A stretch of 59,862 bases of DNA from a virus (taxonomy: Duplodnaviria > Caudoviricetes), in the IMG/VR virus record IMGVR_UViG_3300028862_000314, positions 1-59,862 of that record. One strand, 5' to 3'. Shown here one piece after another: positions 34,902 through 52,562 of the stretch (its first letter is position 1; each line of letters begins with the position of its first letter). Position numbers and translations under genes: made by a program. The notes below the pieces were generated by a model that made no database searches, had not been told where the DNA came from, and was given only the letters and a program-made list of their open reading frames with translations.

Positions 34902-35195
34902 ATGGCAGCACCACTTGGACATAAGAAAGCAGGAGGCAGACAGAAAGGCACGACAAATAAGTCTATTAGTGATTTGCGCTCTATATTCAGCACTCTGCTT
35001 ATCAATAATGAGGGTAATATGCAGACATGGATAGACAAACTAGCTCAACGTAATCCAGGCAAGGCACTAGAGATTATAACAAAAATGGCTGATTATCTTA
35101 TTCCTAAACCAATTCAGGAAGGTGAGAAGTCACCGGAACTTGATTGGTATGCTGAACAAGCCCGGAAGATGATGGAAAAGAGTAAGACTGGCTAA
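34902..35195 (+). CDS. terS: putative terminase small subunit
   Basis: GHKKAGGRQKGTTNK and Y.IPK motifs typical of small terminases. Confidence 0.65.
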   Translation: MAAPLGHKKAGGRQKGTTNKSISDLRSIFSTLLINNEGNMQTWIDKLAQRNPGKALEIITKMADYLIPKPIQEGEKSPELDWYAEQARKMMEKSKTG

Positions 35196-35481
35196 GGATA
35201 TTCAAATTCCCTGTTATGTATTCTTCAATAGCTAAATACTGATTATAAAAGTCACTATCAATATTACAATCCCTAAATTTGTTCATCGAATGATATACTC
35301 TCTGTATGTCGCATCCTAATATTTCAACTACTTGGTGATCGCTTAACTTTGTGGTCCGCTTCAACGCTATTATAATAATCTGATGGCAGCGCATAACTCG
35401 CCTGGCGCGACTACTCCTGAACTCTTTTGGAGTAACAGAATAAGTTTTACATACGAGTTCTATTATTTGCGCAGGTGTCAT
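35104..35481 (-). CDS. DnaA C-terminal-like HTH protein
   Basis: IIELVCKTYSVT...S.R.R and LS...V..ILG.D...VYHS. Confidence 0.55.
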   Translation of the reverse strand: MTPAQIIELVCKTYSVTPKEFRSSRARRVMRCHQIIIIALKRTTKLSDHQVVEILGCDIQRVYHSMNKFRDCNIDSDFYNQYLAIEEYITGNLNILSQSYSFPSSSGLVQHTNQVPVTSHLPELV

Positions 35482-36149
35482 ATATGAATCTGATTAATCG
35501 GTGATTGAATCCTGCTAATTAGTTTATCAGAAATATGAGTGTAGATAAGAGTAGTCTTTACGTTATTATGACCGGCAAGCTTCTGGATCAGATTAATGTC
35601 AGTACCGGCCTCTACCATGTGAGTGAATGCACAATGTCTGATTAAGTGTGTGTAAACTCTTTTACTTATTCCGGCCTTTTCTGCCAGTTGTTTCATAACT
35701 TCATTCACCGATCTATCTGAATACTGAATACCAAACTGTCCATTAAGGACATATTCCTTTGAATGATATTCTTTGTAGTACTTTTCGAGCAGTGGAATAA
35801 TGACATCAGGAAGCATCACTTGACGGTCTTTATTTCCTTTGCCCGCAACAATGTTTATAATCATTCTGGACCTGTCAATATGGGACCATTTAAGATTGAT
35901 TAATTCACTTACTCTTAATCCTGTTGAATAGAGAAGTGTTAGTATTACTTTATGCTTCGTATTTTCGCATACACTGAACATTCTTTGAATTTCATCCTGG
36001 GATAAAACTATTGGCAGTTTATTATTTTTCTTAGCGTAAGGAATCCACTTGAATTTATCTTTTTGATTCAGGCATATATCATAGAATTTCTTAATTGCAC
36101 TGTGATAACATTTTTGAGTGTTGGCAGCAATACAATAGCTACCTGACAA
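35478..36149 (-). CDS. tyrosine recombinase (integron-integrase-like), apparently 5'-truncated at the first cassette junction
   Basis: KLP.VLS, GLRVSE, GKGNKDR, HLIRH, GH, TLIYTH give an intact R-K-H-R-H-Y set; only a TTG start, located inside cassette 1. Confidence 0.85.
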   Translation of the reverse strand: MSGSYCIAANTQKCYHSAIKKFYDICLNQKDKFKWIPYAKKNNKLPIVLSQDEIQRMFSVCENTKHKVILTLLYSTGLRVSELINLKWSHIDRSRMIINIVAGKGNKDRQVMLPDVIIPLLEKYYKEYHSKEYVLNGQFGIQYSDRSVNEVMKQLAEKAGISKRVYTHLIRHCAFTHMVEAGTDINLIQKLAGHNNVKTTLIYTHISDKLISRIQSPINQIHI

Positions 36150-36564
36150 TTTTGTTTATAAGTTGAATTGGGGTACAGTTAAATTTTTCAGAAAGATTAA
36201 AAATTGTCATTGCTTGGTTTCTTGTTGCTGTCAAATCTAACTTCCATCTTATTTCTGCAAATATTCCGTTTTTACGCATTCCGGATAAAGTAAATTTTGA
36301 TACGTCCATTTGTCCGGGTACGCATTCTCTACACCAAAAATCATCTTGTTCATCTTCGGGTAGTTGATTATAGTATTGTTCTACTTTGTCAAAATCTAAA
36401 ATAGCAACATAGTTATCATCATCATCGTTCTCGAACCCACTTTTAAAAGGTTTCGAGTGTTTGCATCCTGAAAAGGCTTGTATTACCTTTTCACCACAAA
36501 TGAAAAATGTACTGCTGCCAACAACAGGTATATTCAATTGCGGGGTTTGTGGTAATTCGTTCAT
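36139..36564 (-). CDS. cassette 1 hypothetical protein (start inside attC loop)
   Basis: N-terminal LNIPVVGSST is encoded by the attC arm. Confidence 0.7.
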   Translation of the reverse strand: MNELPQTPQLNIPVVGSSTFFICGEKVIQAFSGCKHSKPFKSGFENDDDDNYVAILDFDKVEQYYNQLPEDEQDDFWCRECVPGQMDVSKFTLSGMRKNGIFAEIRWKLDLTATRNQAMTIFNLSEKFNCTPIQLINKIVR

Positions 36565-36646
36565 TTATTATCGTATTTAAGTTATTACTGTTTGATAATT
36601 TTGCGCTTCGTAGTCCGCAACTGAAATATACCCGCGGACGTTAGCC
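36516..36646 (+). repeat. attC-like site 1
   Basis: TGCCAAC..GGTATATTCAATTGCGG / CCGCAACTGAAATATACC..CGTTAGCC. Confidence 0.8.
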
Positions 36647-36733
36647 AATAAGTTGCGCTGTAATCGTGTCTTAAAAATCTAATCCAATTCAAGACGGTTT
36701 CGCAGCAATTCAATGAGCATTAGCGCAACCTAT

Positions 36734-37230
36734 TGCTAACAGAGTATATAAAAAATTAAATGGTTTGAGCAATCTGTGCGGGTTCGGCTGTCAAATCTTC
36801 GCCAGTTAAAGCATACCACAAGTTTTGCAATTGGTGTACAAAGTTTATTTCAGCAATCCACACTTCTGATTCTCCAAAATAAACCTGTCCTTCAACAGTA
36901 ATTACCAATTCACCTTTGTTATAGTATCCAGGGTGTCCGATCTCAAATCCAAGTTTCATTAACCAATATTCTGATATTGTCTTACCTTCTAATTCAGAAA
37001 ATGAAATAAGGTCAGTTTTTAATTTATCCTCAAATAAATATTCAACTCTTGCGAAATCGTATTTAATTTCAACAACGGTCAACAATGCCGGCTTGCCTAC
37101 TATCGGGTCCCATTTATACGATAAATAATTCCCAATTTTTAATTCACTTTTTTTCATGTTTTTACAATATTTAGGTAGAGTTAGTATTTTAGGTAACCAT
37201 TTAACTTTTCATATACTCCATACGTTATAA
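36734..37230 (+). repeat. attC-like site 2 (gene in loop)
   Basis: CTAAC.GAGTATATAAAAAATTAAATGGTT / AACCATTTAACTTTTCATATACTC..CGTTATA. Confidence 0.8.
36756..37157 (-). CDS. cassette 2 phage protein (ELKIGN...VHQLQNL family)
   Basis: Paralog of 12908-13264. Confidence 0.7.
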   Translation of the reverse strand: MKKSELKIGNYLSYKWDPIVGKPALLTVVEIKYDFARVEYLFEDKLKTDLISFSELEGKTISEYWLMKLGFEIGHPGYYNKGELVITVEGQVYFGESEVWIAEINFVHQLQNLWYALTGEDLTAEPAQIAQTI

Positions 37231-37512
37231 GCCATTTTTGCCACCGCACCCATACTTCATGCTTTTCGGTAAGCAATCCATCATTTCTTTATCCAACCAC
37301 AGCACTTTATCACAATTCTTACATTTCCAACCATAAGCAGTCCATTTACTGATTTGTGTTTTACCACTTAATGAATGCTTGTGCTGTGATTCTATCTCGT
37401 CAATGTATGGGTTTTCCATATCAAATTCGTGTTTTACCCCAAATAAAAAACGGCTTATAACAACAAGTATAGGTAATTTGCCGTTCTTCAATTTAACTTT
37501 TTCTATATTCAT
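37225..37512 (-). CDS. cassette 3 small Zn-binding protein (start in attC loop, TAA stop in crossover core)
   Basis: CKNC motif; LPILVVISR is encoded by the attC arm. Confidence 0.65.
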   Translation of the reverse strand: MNIEKVKLKNGKLPILVVISRFLFGVKHEFDMENPYIDEIESQHKHSLSGKTQISKWTAYGWKCKNCDKVLWLDKEMMDCLPKSMKYGCGGKNGL

Positions 37513-37583
37513 AATATTTATCTTTTAATTTAAGTTTCTACTAATTTTGATGGGCAAACTACCCATACTTGCAGCCGTTAGCA
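37455..37583 (+). repeat. attC-like site 3
   Basis: ATAAC..AAGTATAGGTAATTTGCC / GGCAAACTACCCATACTT..CGTTAGC. Confidence 0.8.
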
Positions 37584-37613
37584 GCTATTAAAACAGTACG
37601 CTCGTTCCTCGCC

Positions 37614-38150
37614 TGCTAACATGGCATAAGAACAAGTGCTGGCGGTGCTTCGATTTAGCATTTCAACTAATTTTACCATAATTATTTTTTTGCCAACGCT
37701 AAAACTTCTTTATTGTATTTTTTCTGATAACCTTGAAATATATGTGGAAAATTTTTTCCAGTACATACCATATAAATTGCAGTCTGTGAAACATTATATC
37801 TTAAAGCAAGTTCCTTTTTGGATGTTCCATTTTTTAAAACTTCAATAATTATTCTTATTGCTTTAAAATCATTTAATTTTCTGTGTGGATTTCTGAATGA
37901 CCGAACATTCATTCCTTTTGGAGTTTTTGATTTGCATATTCTTTGTATGTGATTAAAATTAACTGGATATAATTCTGCAATTTCTTTTGAAGATTTATTT
38001 TCCACAAACCATAAATTTTGTATTTCCAGTTTTTGTTTTTCTGTAAGTTTTATATTACTCATATTTCCCCTCCTTAAAAAAATAATTATTACTGTAGTGT
38101 TTCAATCATACTGTACGTTTGCACCTGTTCCTATGCCGATACCGTTAGCA
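37614..38150 (+). repeat. attC-like site 4 (gene in loop)
   Basis: CTAAC..GGCATAAGAACAAGTGC / GCACCTGTTCCTATGCC..CGTTAGC. Confidence 0.8.
37682..38062 (-). CDS. cassette 4 tandem-HTH DNA-binding protein
   Basis: SSKEIAELYPV and SKKELALRYNVSQTAI motifs. Confidence 0.7.
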   Translation of the reverse strand: MSNIKLTEKQKLEIQNLWFVENKSSKEIAELYPVNFNHIQRICKSKTPKGMNVRSFRNPHRKLNDFKAIRIIIEVLKNGTSKKELALRYNVSQTAIYMVCTGKNFPHIFQGYQKKYNKEVLALAKK

Positions 38151-38234
38151 ACTATATGCGCATAACAGCAACTATAAAAACGATTCCAACACTTAACACT
38201 TTCGCAGCAAGTCCGGGCAGATAGCGCATACAGT

Positions 38235-39038
38235 TGCTAACACAGTATATAACAAACGCGAACGGCACAGCAACTATTAAAGGGTAATCGTTTATCATCA
38301 CAAATAATAACATGGTTGTACAAGTGGTTTTTACCATAATTCAGGCTGTAATTTATAATTTTGAAATCTTTTCTCTTGTGCGTCGTAATAATCTTTGTCA
38401 TTCTCAAATCCTACAAAATCAATGTTGCCAGTTCTGTATGCTGCAATTCTGTTTGATCCTGATCCTAAATGCGTATCAATTACTTTTCCGCCTTCAGGTA
38501 AATAGTTTCTGTAAATCCAACTGTAAAGCTGAACCGGCTTTTGTGTTGGATGTATTTTGTTTTTCTCGAGCAGTACGGAATATCTAAATATCTTATTTGA
38601 TCCATCAAATGAAGTCCAAGCGTAATCAAACATTCCAAAGCTAAGTTTTTCGGGTTGTCGCTTATCCCAGATAATACAATGTTTTGTTGCTGGAAGTGGA
38701 TAATAGTTGCCACCCCAAATAATCTGATTTTTGGAAATTCTGAAAAGTTCATCAAAGTATTCCATTGATATTGGCTTATTATCCCATTTCTTTGCGGTCA
38801 ACCCTTTGTCTGTTACTAATCGAGGGCTATTACCTATACCAATTCCAAATTCAGGATCAACCACAGCCAAATCAAAACAGTTGTCGGGATAGTTACGCAT
38901 GTTCACAAGGCAATCATCGAAAAAAACTATATTATTCATGTTGGTTCAATATTTAGGTAAAGTGAGCGTTATTATTTGTTTACTTTTCGTTTGCAATCAG
39001 GCAGTGGGTTGCGCTTGTCATATACTAATACGTTATGG
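38235..39038 (+). repeat. attC-like site 5 (gene in loop)
   Basis: CTAAC..AGTATATAACAAACGC / GCGCTTGTCATATACT..CGTTATG. Confidence 0.8.
38331..38939 (-). CDS. cassette 5 DNA amino-methyltransferase (N4/N6, beta class)
   Basis: DPEF motif IV variant, HPTQKP, IDTHLGSGS. Confidence 0.85.
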   Translation of the reverse strand: MNNIVFFDDCLVNMRNYPDNCFDLAVVDPEFGIGIGNSPRLVTDKGLTAKKWDNKPISMEYFDELFRISKNQIIWGGNYYPLPATKHCIIWDKRQPEKLSFGMFDYAWTSFDGSNKIFRYSVLLEKNKIHPTQKPVQLYSWIYRNYLPEGGKVIDTHLGSGSNRIAAYRTGNIDFVGFENDKDYYDAQEKRFQNYKLQPELW

Positions 39039-39087
39039 GCAACCGTAAGACCGCTCCGAAAGGCAGCCTTACGACGCCACAATTTCA

Positions 39088-39225
39088 CTACTTTAGTTTT
39101 GCAACCAATTCAAGTAGTTTTTCTACTACGGTCGTAACCGCTTCTTTTTTCTCTGCCCTCATTAATGGGTCAATGCTTGCCGATAAAGTGGCAATTGCGT
39201 TTAATAAATCCTGTTGATTTTCCAT
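39088..39225 (-). CDS. cassette 6 small helical protein
   Basis: MENQQDLL...; ORF can be extended to 39285. Confidence 0.5.
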   Translation of the reverse strand: MENQQDLLNAIATLSASIDPLMRAEKKEAVTTVVEKLLELVAKLK

Positions 39226-39281
39226 ATAAATTGTGGGTTTTACAATGCCCTCCCAAGGCGTATTATTTAAAAAACGGCAGC

Positions 39282-39377
39282 CCATAACACGTTGTATACG
39301 TCAGTTTTGCCGTGTAATTTCGTATAAATTGATAGCTGTGTGCAGGCAAAACCGCACGCATACAACCACCGTTAGCC
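39282..39377 (+). repeat. attC-like site 6
   Basis: CATAAC..GTTGTATACGTCAGTTTTGCC / GGCAAAACCGCACGCATACAAC..CGTTAGC. Confidence 0.8.
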
Positions 39378-39464
39378 AATAAGCTACGCATACAGCGTGT
39401 AATAAAACGTTAATCTTAATTTTCAATCTTCGCATCGGTTCAGAAAGTTTGGTGCGTAGCCTAT

Positions 39465-39891
39465 TGCTAACAGCGTATATAACAAAATAAATTATTTGGG
39501 CTGTACGTGTGGCTCGGTAGGCGCATTCATCGCTTCATAATCAATGTACACATCATACAGTTGTTCTGTTGTACGCCAAACATTTATGTCGTAAAAAGAC
39601 CAATAAGATTTAACCCAAACCTTTTGATTTGCATCTGTTGGATGTTGTCTGCATATCCAATTATACTTAGTAGTCCATTCAACAAAATCAATTGCCATTA
39701 TTTTTGAATAGTTAGACATGGCATCAAGTACTTCTGGAACATCAAATGTTATTTTAACACCTGGTCTCCTTCTTTCTCTTGCCTGTTTAAGTATTTCTAA
39801 TCTTGTTATGCTTTCCATAATTGTACAATATTTAGGTAAAGTGTGTAATTGAGGTAATAATTTCTCTTGTCATATACGCCATCCGTTAGTT
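39465..39891 (+). repeat. attC-like site 7 (gene in loop)
   Basis: CTAAC.GCGTATATAACAAAATAAATTATT / AATAATTTCTCTTGTCATATACGC..CGTTAGT. Confidence 0.8.
39492..39818 (-). CDS. cassette 7 hypothetical phage protein
   Basis: AIDFVEW...TTEQLY motif; same leader as the cassette 2 and 5 genes. Confidence 0.65.
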   Translation of the reverse strand: MESITRLEILKQARERRRPGVKITFDVPEVLDAMSNYSKIMAIDFVEWTTKYNWICRQHPTDANQKVWVKSYWSFYDINVWRTTEQLYDVYIDYEAMNAPTEPHVQPK

Positions 39892-40098: not shown

Positions 40099-40227
40099 AA
40101 CTAACACTAAATATAAAATATACGGGTGTCAGTGCATATTTGAACGGTATTACCTTTAATTTGCTTTCGTGTATCGGGATAGGATACCGCTTTTAATCCC
40201 GTACATTTCATATTTTTAACGTTGGCA
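40099..40227 (+). repeat. attC-like site 8
   Basis: CTAAC..AAATATAAAATATACGGG / CCCGTACATTTCATATTT..CGTTGGC. Confidence 0.8.
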
Positions 40228-40233
40228 GCAATA

Positions 40234-41028
40234 CTACCAAAGTGCCAGTTTCAAGTTTCGTTTATAATTGAACCATCTTTTTTCTTCGTCCTGAAAATAT
40301 TCCGAATCAATTTCAGTGCCGACAAATTCGCATTCAAATTTATCTGCAGTAATTCGGCTACTTCCTGAGCCTAAATGTGTATCAATTACTTTCATTTTGT
40401 ATATGCCAAATTCTTTAAAAATAGCATCGTAGAGCATCACTGGCTTATGGCAAGGGTGTATTCTTTTTTCATTTAGTTTTTTGTTTCCTTGCTGTACCAT
40501 TGGTTCACTAAGGCTTTTCGCTTGCATCATTCCAGCCCATAAAAGCGGTATTTCAATTTCGTAATTAATAGAGCTGCAGTAAGCATATTCAAATTGGTTA
40601 AAACTTACACCTTCCGCAAATCCTTTATTCCATTTAATTCGTCCTTTGCCTAATCCTGTCCATTCGGTATAGTCAGCTCCGAAAATTATTTGGTTTTTGC
40701 TTATTCGTTTTAGTTCATCAAAATATGCTTGAGGTGGTGTGGCATTATCCCAATCCTTAAAAGTATGTTTATGTTTATTTCTGTTTGGGTTTATTCGAGT
40801 TCCATTTTTTTGTTTTACAGTCGTTTTGGTTTCTTTCAAATAAGCCATTTTAGCAACTCCAATCCCATAAGGTATGTCACAAACCGCCCAATCGAAATAT
40901 TTATTAGGAAACAAACCCATAACAGACGAATAATGAGCATTAAACACCGTACTGCTGCCAACAACAGGTATAGCAAATAAAGGCTGCTGTGGTTTGCGGT
41001 CGGTAGTGCTTTCTATATTATTCATCAT
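40234..41028 (-). CDS. cassette 9 DNA amino-methyltransferase (N4/N6, beta class; start inside attC loop)
   Basis: DIPY motif IV variant, HPCHKP, IDTHLGSGS; FAIPVVGSST from attC arm. Confidence 0.85.
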   Translation of the reverse strand: MMNNIESTTDRKPQQPLFAIPVVGSSTVFNAHYSSVMGLFPNKYFDWAVCDIPYGIGVAKMAYLKETKTTVKQKNGTRINPNRNKHKHTFKDWDNATPPQAYFDELKRISKNQIIFGADYTEWTGLGKGRIKWNKGFAEGVSFNQFEYAYCSSINYEIEIPLLWAGMMQAKSLSEPMVQQGNKKLNEKRIHPCHKPVMLYDAIFKEFGIYKMKVIDTHLGSGSSRITADKFECEFVGTEIDSEYFQDEEKRWFNYKRNLKLALW

Positions 41029-42531: not shown

Positions 42532-43166
42532 TCATCTGTTTTGATATTCATTAATTCTTCATCAACAAGCCATTCTTTATTAACTAGCCAATCAGATCCC
42601 ACTTTTTTCATTATCTCCTTCCCTGATGTTTCTCCACAAGTTCTCTGATCTCCGTATAATTTTGCCAGTTCGTGTTTTTGATTCTCATGCTCTCTATCGG
42701 AAACAAATTCAGCAGCATTTAACCGTTCATCAAATACCTGCCTGAACCATGATAATATTTTTGCTCCATCTAATCCCTCGTATATGGCCCCAAACTTTCC
42801 CATTTTAGCCTGTTTGAATATGTAAATCATATCGGCTATCTTAATCATTGGAAATTCATCCAGTATCATTTCTGCGGTAATATCAATTTGTGCGCCCGTC
42901 ATGCTTCGGGTTAAATTCAGGTAGTCAGACAATTCAAGTAAATGCGCTTTTATTAAACTGACTGCCAATAGTTCATTTACTTTGTTTTTCAAATAACCCA
43001 GTGACGGAGTATTGTATTCTGGCTTTATTAAATCCGAAACCGATTTTAATTTAACCTGCAGTTCCCTGCTCGATTGCGGATTGTATATCTCTAGCAAGTT
43101 TTTGACGGTAATCGTCGCTAACTCTGTTATTTGATTTGACCCTGTTTTTATTAGTGCCGTTGACAT
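42528..43166 (-). CDS. replication accessory protein (helicase-loader-like position)
   Basis: Follows initiator; F..AK.GKFG..Y..LD motif. Confidence 0.5.
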   Translation of the reverse strand: MSTALIKTGSNQITELATITVKNLLEIYNPQSSRELQVKLKSVSDLIKPEYNTPSLGYLKNKVNELLAVSLIKAHLLELSDYLNLTRSMTGAQIDITAEMILDEFPMIKIADMIYIFKQAKMGKFGAIYEGLDGAKILSWFRQVFDERLNAAEFVSDREHENQKHELAKLYGDQRTCGETSGKEIMKKVGSDWLVNKEWLVDEELMNIKTDE

Positions 43167-43986
43167 GATCTTTAAGTTTTAATTTGAACCAGTTACCAAA
43201 ATATTTTTTTGCCTCCTTATCTGTTAAGGGAAAACTTGATAAGTCTTTTAAGTGTCTTGTAAATGCCGGGATATGTTTTGTTACGTCCTCGGTTGATATT
43301 GTTAATTTGTAGGTATCAAAAGCTGTTGTTACAAGTGATTCGTGCTGAGAATAATTATTTTCTAATTCGTGTTCGAGTTCAGATATTTTTTCTTCCGTAT
43401 AAACAATCCCATGTTTACCGAATAATGATTCAAATTTTTCCGGCCCCGGGAAATCTTCTTCTTTTTTTTCTTTGTTTTTTAAATCACTAATAAATTTTTC
43501 AAATTCAGATTCATATTTGTTTAATAGTGTATAGTTATTAGTTAATAGTATTATATTATTACCAGTTAGAGTACCAGTTAGAGTACCAGGTAGTGTATCA
43601 GGTAGTGTATCAGGTACAGTACCATGTATAGTATCAGATAGAGGCACAGCTACAGTACCAGTTAGAGTATCATTTTTTGATACACTAAGAATTGTTAATT
43701 TTATCCTTGGTGACTTATTTAGGTTGATTCCCTTCTCCCATTGCAGTAAACCAAATTTGCATAATTCATCAAGTATTGCGTAATAAGTTGTTTTACTTTG
43801 AATAGCTGCGCCCTGCATTGCAAGGTCCCAGGGACACTTAAACCATACAGCCCAGTTATTCCTATTGTTTTGATTTAAAAGGAACATATACAGGCTTATG
43901 TGTGTTGGCCTAATGTCATGTACTCCATTGAAAACAATAGAATAGAATGCTTTTAACTGAGTATGTAGTTCAATCCTGTTAGCCAT
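43051..43986 (-). CDS. replication initiator protein
   Basis: N-terminal wHTH-like HISLY.FL..NN..W; internal tandem repeats; C-terminal YF.NW. Confidence 0.7.
   Translation of the reverse strand: MANRIELHTQLKAFYSIVFNGVHDIRPTHISLYMFLLNQNNRNNWAVWFKCPWDLAMQGAAIQSKTTYYAILDELCKFGLLQWEKGINLNKSPRIKLTILSVSKNDTLTGTVAVPLSDTIHGTVPDTLPDTLPGTLTGTLTGNNIILLTNNYTLLNKYESEFEKFISDLKNKEKKEEDFPGPEKFESLFGKHGIVYTEEKISELEHELENNYSQHESLVTTAFDTYKLTISTEDVTKHIPAFTRHLKDLSSFPLTDKEAKKYFGNWFKLKLKDHVNGTNKNRVKSNNRVSDDYRQKLARDIQSAIEQGTAG
43561..43672. repeat. 12-bp tandem repeats (iteron-like origin) in initiator gene
   Basis: ACCAGTTAGAGT x2, CAGGTAGTGTAT x2 and degenerate copies, beside an AT-rich tract (43500-43560). Confidence 0.7.
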
Positions 43987-52456: not shown

Positions 52457-52492
52457 GAAAGCCCGGACAAAGTTAGCCGGGCTTTCGCTTTT
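52457..52492. terminator. intrinsic terminator
   Basis: GAAAGCCCGG...CCGGGCTTTC then T-tract. Confidence 0.7.
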
Positions 52493-52562
52493 TATGGTAA
52501 GTATGGTTTTTATGGTTTTTATGGTTTTTATGAAAAACAGGTATTCCCTGTGAAAAGTAGGT

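Follow-up and report, generated by a model that had tools for sequence, protein, structure and literature searches.

An identical 17-nucleotide leader element before unrelated genes in an integron-like array of a probable Bacteroidota phage

How do genes that show no relationship to one another come to carry the same 17 nucleotides (nt) at the same distance from their start codons? The question is raised by the IMG/VR virus record IMGVR_UViG_3300028862_000314 (Caudoviricetes), a linear record of 59,862 nt with an estimated completeness of 69%, which is analysed here over its whole length and referred to below as the window. Between 36.1 and 41.0 kb, beside a gene for a truncated XerA-like recombinase, the window contains an integron-like array, three genes of which, denoted A, D and F, begin 7 nt downstream of an identical 17-mer. 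These genes are on the minus strand, and the coordinates of the motif are given as plus strand positions. The 17-mer is the invariant core of a leader that belongs to a cassette frame shared around unrelated cargo. The motif by itself is a small piece, with three copies in one uncultured phage lineage; the array in which it lies touches on the old open question of how integron-type cassettes pair unrelated genes with near-identical recombination sites.

The 17-mer and the cassette frame

A scan of the entire window with the pattern CAATATTTAGGTARAGT identifies three plus strand matches, at 37165, 38947 and 39826, all with 0 mismatches; the plus strand letters are CAATATTTAGGTAGAGT at 37165-37181 and CAATATTTAGGTAAAGT at both 38947-38963 and 39826-39842. 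There is no fourth match anywhere in the window even when up to 3 mismatches are allowed, a tolerance at which dinucleotide shuffles give a mean of 0.73 matches. The same pattern read backwards, used as a control, has zero matches in the window, and the forward scan repeats the same three. Five 13-mers, the motif core among them, occur at least three times in the window, compared with 0 or 1 in each of 20 dinucleotide shuffles. In the sense of the genes, the unit is ACTYTACCTAAATATTG followed by 7 nt and ATG, on the minus strand in all three copies: ACTCTACCTAAATATTG precedes gene A, with 7 nt to the ATG at 37157; ACTTTACCTAAATATTG precedes gene D, with 7 nt to the ATG at 38939; and the third copy precedes gene F, with 7 nt to the ATG at 39818. 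The start codons occupy 37155-37157, 38937-38939 and 39816-39818, respectively. The spacers themselves are unlike (TAAAAAC, AACCAAC and TACAATT). Thus, the identical 17-nt leader at a fixed 7 nt from three start codons, as described in the first-pass annotation, is recovered exactly, and so is the absence of homology between the downstream genes, because A, D and F have no mutual BLASTP match at E<=10. The same annotation had pointed to occurrence at non-cassette genes, or a variable spacing, as evidence against its reading; the window contains no other copy and the 7-nt distance is constant, and therefore the 17-mer is not a general signal of this phage.

Gene A (36756-37157, 133 amino acids (aa)) matches the phage family phrog_10066 of unknown function (E 2.8e-12). 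Gene D (38331-38939, 202 aa) encodes a DNA methyltransferase (PF01555; phrog_23224, E 2e-31) that is 36% identical to another methyltransferase encoded in the array at 40234-41028, and gene F (39492-39818, 108 aa) has no match in any family searched. All three lie inside, rather than beside, a recombination site. An explicit search identifies 5 sites in the window array, compared with 0-1 in shuffles, and four of them hold a whole gene (A, C, D and F, the "loop genes") in the loop between the arms L'' and L'. In these cassettes, the usual gene position is occupied by a hairpin of 43-101 nt (36640-36740, 37578-37620, 38144-38241 and 39371-39471). The cassette of gene A spans 36641-37224, with its hairpin at 36640-36740, L arms at 36742-36765 and 37195-37218 that enclose leader and gene and are 92% complementary in an inverted-repeat scan, and G|TTA at 36640 and 37224. 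That of gene D spans 38145-39032 (hairpin 38144-38241; L arms at about 38243-38263 and at 39008-39027), and that of gene F spans 39372-39885 (hairpin 39371-39471; L arms 39473-39496 and 39856-39879). The L''/L' stems around A, D and F are 19-24 base pairs long, with 22 Watson-Crick and 2 G-T pairs of 24 in A, 21 and 2 in F, and 17 and 3 in D; they covary, such that 5-7 positions are changed on both sides among A, F and D with the pair kept. The 66-nt leader of gene A (37158-37223, minus strand) consists, in order, of a spacer, the L'' arm, a TTACCT repeat, the 17-mer and the 7-nt spacer, and in both A and F a second, degenerate copy of the motif is found 18 nt upstream of the 17-mer (TTACCTAAAATAC and TTACCTCAATTAC). 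Whereas the distance between the 17-mer and the ATG is constant, 13-14 nt separate the 17-mer from the L arm in A and F, compared with about 45 nt in D; thus, the 17-mer is tied to the start codon, not to the site.

Further contexts come from a metagenome collection, in which the 17-mer is present at 4 loci: one is the same phage (L049) and the other three are gene-A cassettes (L048, L050 and L051). The 17-mer, 7 nt and ATG are kept together in the three window copies and in three metagenome cassette contexts (L050, L048 and L051). Comparison of these cassettes separates a conserved frame from its cargo. The frame comprises a hairpin of about 100 nt (GTTAGC...GCTAAC), L boxes of the GTATAT type, the leader with the 17-mer, and a 3' tail. 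The leaders of A and F (the latter at 39819-39884) are of equal length and identical at 51 of 66 positions, compared with a mean of 49% and a maximum of 59% in shuffles, and the downstream parts are 66% identical (48% shuffled), whereas the coding DNA is at the chance level (50%; 48% shuffled). Window gene A and its homologue in L050 agree at 64 of 66 leader positions, with 66% identity in the downstream part, 58.6% in the coding DNA and 38-39% between the proteins; against L048, the leader agrees at about 36 of 40 positions and the proteins are 39-40% identical. Gene D has a longer leader (92 nt, compared with 66), and what it has in common with A and F is limited to the L box, the hairpin family and the 17-mer, which is identical to that of F at 17 of 17 positions inside leaders that are otherwise at the chance level (55%, to be read against the shuffled mean of 49% obtained for A and F). 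In L048 and L051, the same leader, placed immediately behind an ordinary R' box (GTTACCT...), precedes a third gene-A homologue (39-40% protein identity), which is followed by an ordinary site with L boxes like those around window gene A. Given that the same leader is found here between sites, it goes with the gene start and not with the loop design. Empty sites of the same L-box type, namely L050 1-120 and L042 8109-8156, have no 17-mer.

On the 3' side, the frame extends into the ends of the ORFs (open reading frames), or past them, by about 30-45 nt. A tail element of about 45 nt (..GCCGARCCNGCRC..CAA..TTATTT..) is common to five cassettes, including those at window positions 36760-36800 and 39495-39530, L049 205-255, and L048. 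It encodes the C-terminus (AEPAQ...) of three gene-A homologues and the residues TEPHVQPK in F, and in an unrelated cassette of L049 it follows the stop codon, a pattern that looks like replacement of cargo inside an older frame. The frame is therefore recognisable on either side of the cargo: at the 5' end it approaches the ATG to within 7 nt, and at the 3' end it extends into the last codons or the 3' untranslated region (UTR); together with the presence of the leader on diverged homologues in two cassette designs, this makes cargo replacement testable. The first-pass annotation had proposed shared body ends, GTTAGCCAATAAG...CCTATTGCTAAC, and these are present at 36640-36652/36729-36740 and 39371-39383/39460-39471, in repeat families that are 74-78% identical. 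Its further proposal, a common backbone into which ORFs are captured precisely at the start codon, holds in part: there is one frame, with unrelated cargo, that moves as a unit, but the 7-nt spacer differs among the copies, so that the junction between frame and cargo does not lie at the ATG itself.

Outside these contexts, the motif is rare. Twenty IMG/VR loci with the exact 17-mer are rejected as chance matches, as none has ATG at +7 and none is in a cassette context, and another search, with the shortened pattern TACCTAAATATTG followed by 7 nt and ATG, yields 20 IMG/VR loci and no convincing gene start; one of these, L170, has a 301-aa ORF, but its frame is open for 36 codons upstream. At the 23 loci that encode relatives of the recombinase, no 17-mer within 4 substitutions is found at a start. 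In IMG/VR, searches with the single proteins A and F retrieve no relatives; a gene-A profile built from 3 sequences detects 377 relatives, of which 80 were kept and 72 examined, and no 17-mer within 4 substitutions is found upstream of the 72. Among genome contigs, the 17-mer followed by 7 nt and ATG is present at 3 loci, with about 2 chance matches expected by estimate. Two of these have no ORF. The third, on contig L054 of a Saprospiraceae metagenome-assembled genome (MAG), shows the exact unit (at about 2500-2530) at the start of a chromosomal gene for a Cys-rich protein of 120 aa that adjoins a K-channel-like gene, with no cassette sites nearby and no TAnnTTTG box seen in the approximately 130 nt upstream. 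This MAG has 51 near-matches to the motif, compared with 39 in the control, not placed at starts, and no close relative of the recombinase. The case of L054 may be either chance or a real relative of the leader; apart from it, the 17-mer is confined to one phage lineage. A survey of related genomes, as the first-pass annotation had recommended, thus adds three gene-A cassettes with the 7-nt spacing and brings in no new cargo family. A family-wide leader motif in the cassettes of relatives, ACTAAA, was also considered (5 of 18 leaders, compared with 24 of 313 controls) and dropped, as 4 of the 5 come from one locus.

The array, its recombinase and its probable host

The recombinase gene (35478-36149, minus strand) encodes a tyrosine recombinase (PF00589, E 1.2e-39) that lacks about 60 N-terminal residues. 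It is nearest to the models of XerA and of integron integrases, yet scores under their cutoffs (for TIGR02249, 156.6 bits against a cutoff of 265). In IMG/VR, 23 of 24 loci encode the recombinase at 59-80% identity, all 23 of them at full length (266-282 aa), and the 24th (L047) has a 33-residue fragment. The similarity of the window protein to its full-length relatives starts at 36125 (the codon for N of NTQK), at a cassette junction, and the missing N-terminal fragment is not found elsewhere in the window. A box, GTTGGCAGCAATAC (36120-36133), pairs with 36508-36523; therefore, the first cassette, with a 141-aa ORF (36139-36564), appears to be inserted within the recombinase gene. Several metagenome contigs likewise end at 36119-36122. 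A full-length relative, L024 (275 aa), aligns with VchIntIA (2a3v) over residues 12-175/11-179 and 200-272/247-319; it has 24 residues where IntI4 (VchIntIA) has 67, so that the IntI-specific segment is absent, and it aligns over its full length with XerA (5hxy, E 6.6e-36). Among cultured phages there is no close relative, the best being 34% identical. In nearly all relatives from L024 to L046, a conserved element (..YTAAC, 3-6 nt, TATATGTA box) is present about 50-60 nt upstream of the recombinase ATG; this element is likely a site of the attI type, with a TATATG similar to the GTATATGA L box found in cassettes A, D and F.

The arrays of relatives were mapped in 10 of the 23 recombinase-carrying loci. 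All 10 have a row of sites upstream of the recombinase, in the same direction, with ORFs between the sites; the sites have the form ..YTAAC, 3-6 nt, L'', loop, L', 1-2 nt, GTTA.., with 46-194 nt between the R boxes, and the first 10 nt of each cassette are complementary to the box at the cassette end. In 58 distinct sites from the window and the relatives, there are 59 G-T mispairs and 16 A-C mispairs on the gene-sense strand, which identifies the folding strand as the coding strand. All ORFs of the window array point to the recombinase, which is divergent at the left end, and the cargo is thus on the folding strand, facing the recombinase.

Exact-identity breakpoints mark the units that move. 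A 747-nt contig from a peat metagenome (X4 record 3) contains exactly 36639-37227, with 0 differences, between unlike flanks of 133 nt and 25 nt, in agreement with the partition into cassettes given in the first-pass annotation. Other metagenome contigs part from the window at 37223, 39374 and 40223; L049 matches the window at 99.95% identity for 2171 nt but is unlike it past 40226; and the similarity of the gene-A homologue of L050 to the window begins at 37227. From these breakpoints, the cassettes are cut at G|TTA on the plus strand and move as one unit. The alternative, a gene-sense reading of ordinary cassettes (body plus downstream site), is rejected, as the breakpoints fit the plus strand partition. 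Breakpoints at other site ends (40102 and 39285) come from contigs with several differences and are read as paralogous sites joined to other cassettes. In L049, which is otherwise near-identical, a cassette with a 60-aa ORF is found where the window has the methyltransferase cassette (L049 1-250 compared with 40227-40480), with the break AAC|GTT at 40226.

The window is probably a fragment of a Bacteroidota phage. At four operon-leading genes (8933, 31918, 32049 and 54393), a TAnnTTTG box precedes the ATG by 14-19 nt, and two more genes (50567 and 50674) have one at a greater distance upstream; the upstream regions of 60 phage genes show an adenine peak at -13/-12, with Shine-Dalgarno (SD)-like 4-mers in only 3 of 60; and the sole DNA similarity to cultured phages is a methyltransferase segment, with the best matches in Flavobacterium phages. 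Together, these features indicate a Bacteroidota host.

Other features of the region stand apart from the 17-mer. Gene C (37682-38062) encodes two helix-turn-helix (HTH) motifs like the DNA-binding ends of homing endonucleases. It is preceded by a strong SD sequence, AAGGAGGGG (38063-38085), to be compared with the 3 of 60 other genes that have a 4-mer, and may be of foreign origin. A DnaA_C-like HTH protein is encoded beside the array at 35104-35481. The 141-aa ORF and the methyltransferase at 40234-41028 have their first 17-20 or so codons in common (12 of 17 identical, E about 2e-4); these codons (36508-36564 and 40949-41028) are encoded by the L'/R' part of similar sites, and thus the recombination site supplies the start codon and the N-terminus of both ORFs. 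A metagenome contig of run X5 parts from the window at 36355, inside the 141-aa ORF, which is therefore itself a mosaic. Elsewhere in the window, about 10 tandem copies of a 12-nt unit (TACCAGTTAGAG-like) occupy 43548-43691, inside the ORF 43051-43986, and a 9-nt unit, CATAAAAAC, is repeated about 4 times at approximately 52480-52535, in the gap between 52169 and 52563, with an iteron-like look.

Candidate roles of the 17-mer

What the 17-mer does in this frame has to be judged from its position and composition. Tentatively, and at somewhat less than an even chance, we favour a start-associated leader that acts on translation initiation. The 17-mer, as part of the 5' untranslated leader, would act in cis on the mRNA and set up initiation of whatever cargo follows, in a host of the Bacteroidota type that works without SD pairing; this might involve a factor that recognises the ACTYTACC half, and the element would spread because the frame, not the cargo, is copied. 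Action at the RNA level is what we infer from the fixed spacing and orientation, from a conservation beyond that of the cargo, and from several properties of the leaders. They fold no better than shuffles in RNA fold prediction (z +0.38, +0.80 and +1.83), with the motif mostly unpaired, and contain no ATG. A is present at -3 and -6 in 3 of 3 copies, and the motif supplies A at -11 and at -13 to -15, with T at -12; in Flavobacterium johnsoniae, adenines at -3, -6, -12 and -13 are described as promoting initiation (PMC6847099), and the phage's own genes likewise have their adenine peak at -13/-12.

Several observations weigh against this interpretation. Scored together with 60 other genes of the phage, by means of a matrix derived from the 25 nt before the starts of these 60, the three leaders rank 42, 52 and 54 of 63, and hence do not stand above the average as generic initiation contexts; the adenine rules do not account for the 5' half ACTYTACC, and -12 is T. 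The low ranks and the unexplained half imply a specific element rather than a generic context. The unit at the chromosomal gene start of L054 would be compatible with a self-sufficient promoter that gives rise to a nearly leaderless mRNA. Finally, there are only six independent leaders, with at most 3 cargo families, so that recent copying of the frame is not fully separable from selection.

A cassette-borne promoter that produces nearly leaderless transcripts is rather unlikely. The 3' part of the motif (AAATATTG or TATTGT) would then be the -7/-10 element, with transcription starting at A -3, and each loop gene would be expressed by itself despite facing the recombinase gene. The rigid 7-nt spacing could reflect the need of a leaderless design; a purine is at -3 in 3 of 3 copies, and the F. 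johnsoniae transcription start, 4-5 nt past the -7 element, would correspond to -3/-2 here (PMC6847099). The genes are also on the strand opposite to the integron convention, out of reach of a promoter on the attI side, and in L054 the unit stands behind a long intergenic region. However, in its best register, AAATATTG, the motif matches only 4 of the 6 near-invariant positions of TAHHTTTG, with A for T at -12 and -8, and no more than 7 nt separate the element from the ATG, whereas the phage's own TAnnTTTG sites leave 14-19 nt at four genes; in the data set described in PMC6847099, 87% of the predicted F. johnsoniae transcripts have leaders of more than 10 nt. A role as a host-type promoter is thus unlikely. 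The array lies within a long run of co-directional genes (35.1-50.6 kb), so that read-through transcription is possible. A scan for sigma-70-type promoters and terminators, rejected as a source of candidates, stays at the chance level, with 19 promoter sites in the region compared with 20.5 expected; the sole such match in the leader of a motif gene, ATTACA-18-TACAAT in F (39849-39820), has its second hexamer abutting the ATG. The first-pass annotation had named both a promoter and a translation enhancer; the former now looks unlikely in its host-type form, and the latter is favoured, although unproven.

That the 17-mer is an operator, bound as DNA or as mRNA by a phage or cassette protein or a small RNA that co-regulates the three cassette genes, is quite unlikely. 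T4 RegA acts in this manner, at the start regions of several early mRNAs. Conservation at 17 of 17 positions far exceeds the specificity that Bacteroidota initiation contexts require, A and F carry the degenerate second copy, and DNA-binding proteins of unknown role occur among the products of the array and its neighbouring genes, candidate binders being, for example, the two-HTH protein of gene C and the DnaA_C-like HTH protein at 35104-35481. For the start-associated sequences of Cluster K phages, discussed below, a role as a binding site is likewise left open by the authors of PMC3203893. Against an operator, no sequence complementary to the 17-mer is found in the window, and the 17-mer persists in the contigs L048, L050 and L051.

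Similarly doubtful is a relic without function, inherited by common descent or spread by short-patch gene conversion among cassettes derived from the gene-A type, hitch-hiking with the recombination boxes: A, F and L050 do have whole 66-nt leaders of equal length in common, the last codons of F and the L049 3' UTR are homologous to C-terminal coding DNA of gene A, which suggests cargo replacement in an older cassette, and the motif is found in one lineage only (0 convincing among the 20 + 20 IMG/VR matches and none at the 72 gene-A homologues), but the identity of D is an isolated 17-nt island between flanks at the chance level, the distance to the ATG stays the same while the spacers vary in sequence, and no letter of the motif changes between gene-A homologues with only 38-40% protein identity.

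A broader proposal concerns the origin of the cassettes: new cassettes might arise by a swap of ORFs between the two arms of the frame, the 17-mer leader and the conserved 3' tail, with the 17-mer serving as the start-associated operator of one factor that controls the translation of all cassettes built on the frame. This combination is speculative and, in our estimate, fairly improbable. If it is true, the frame provides the cargo with a start context and in some cases with the last codons, and there is a concrete, testable route by which integron-type cassettes acquire genes. The leader also offers a defined, portable candidate expression element for Bacteroidota hosts that do not use SD pairing.

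Comparison with known systems

A limited, non-exhaustive keyword search of the literature finds no description of a start-associated leader common to integron-type cassettes, and none of Xer-like phage arrays of this kind. The promoters of Bacteroidota that depend on sigma-ABfr, as characterised in PMC6847099, have a -33 TTTG and a -7 TAHHTTTG, with T-12, A-11, T-8, T-7, T-6 and G-5. The 17-mer is similar in having an AT-rich element that ends in TTG near the gene, but 2 of the 6 near-invariant positions are wrong, and it is too near the ATG for a usual leader. The resemblance to Bacteroidota initiation regions, as far as these are described in the same source, consists in the lack of an SD sequence, an unstructured A/T-rich leader and A at -3, -6 and -13; unlike the degenerate "Kozak-like" contexts, however, the 17-mer is an invariant word of 17 nt in leaders that rank below the median of the phage's own starts.

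With sedentary chromosomal integrons, as presented in PMC5027507, the array has in common folded sites with AAC/GTT cores and R and L boxes, G|TT breakpoints, and sites that are far more alike than the cargo. In integron attC sites, G-T and A-C mispairs number 1.24 and 0.39 per site, which marks the recombining strand (PMC5027507), and the bias of G-T pairs to one strand (59 compared with 16) is of the same kind here. Phage-borne attC clusters have appeared in print, including a Polaribacter phage with two methyltransferase cassettes (PMC9892861). The differences are that the recombinase is XerA-like, without the IntI segment; that the genes occupy the folding strand and face the recombinase, whereas integron cargo is on the top strand, read from a promoter at the attI end, and the bottom strand folds; and that A, C, D and F are located between the L boxes, with a hairpin in the usual gene position and a frame that includes a 5' leader abutting the start codon.

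The closest parallel to the 17-mer itself is provided by the start-associated sequences (SAS/ESAS) of Cluster K mycobacteriophages, an asymmetric 13-bp word located 3-7 bp before the starts of unrelated non-structural genes (PMC3203893). Their function is unproven, and translation initiation or a bound factor has been proposed (PMC3203893). Like these sequences, to the extent that they are described there, the 17-mer is asymmetric, has one orientation, lies a few nt before the starts, mostly ATG, of unrelated genes, is restricted to a lineage and is absent from the remaining genome. The SAS, however, has an AGGAG Shine-Dalgarno core and many copies over the non-structural half of the genome, with 93 sites in the phages studied (PMC3203893). 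By contrast, neither the 17-mer nor its spacers contain GGAG, GAGG or AGGA, and the 17-mer has 3 copies, all of them in mobile cassettes of an integron-like array and in a phage whose probable host is blind to SD sequences.

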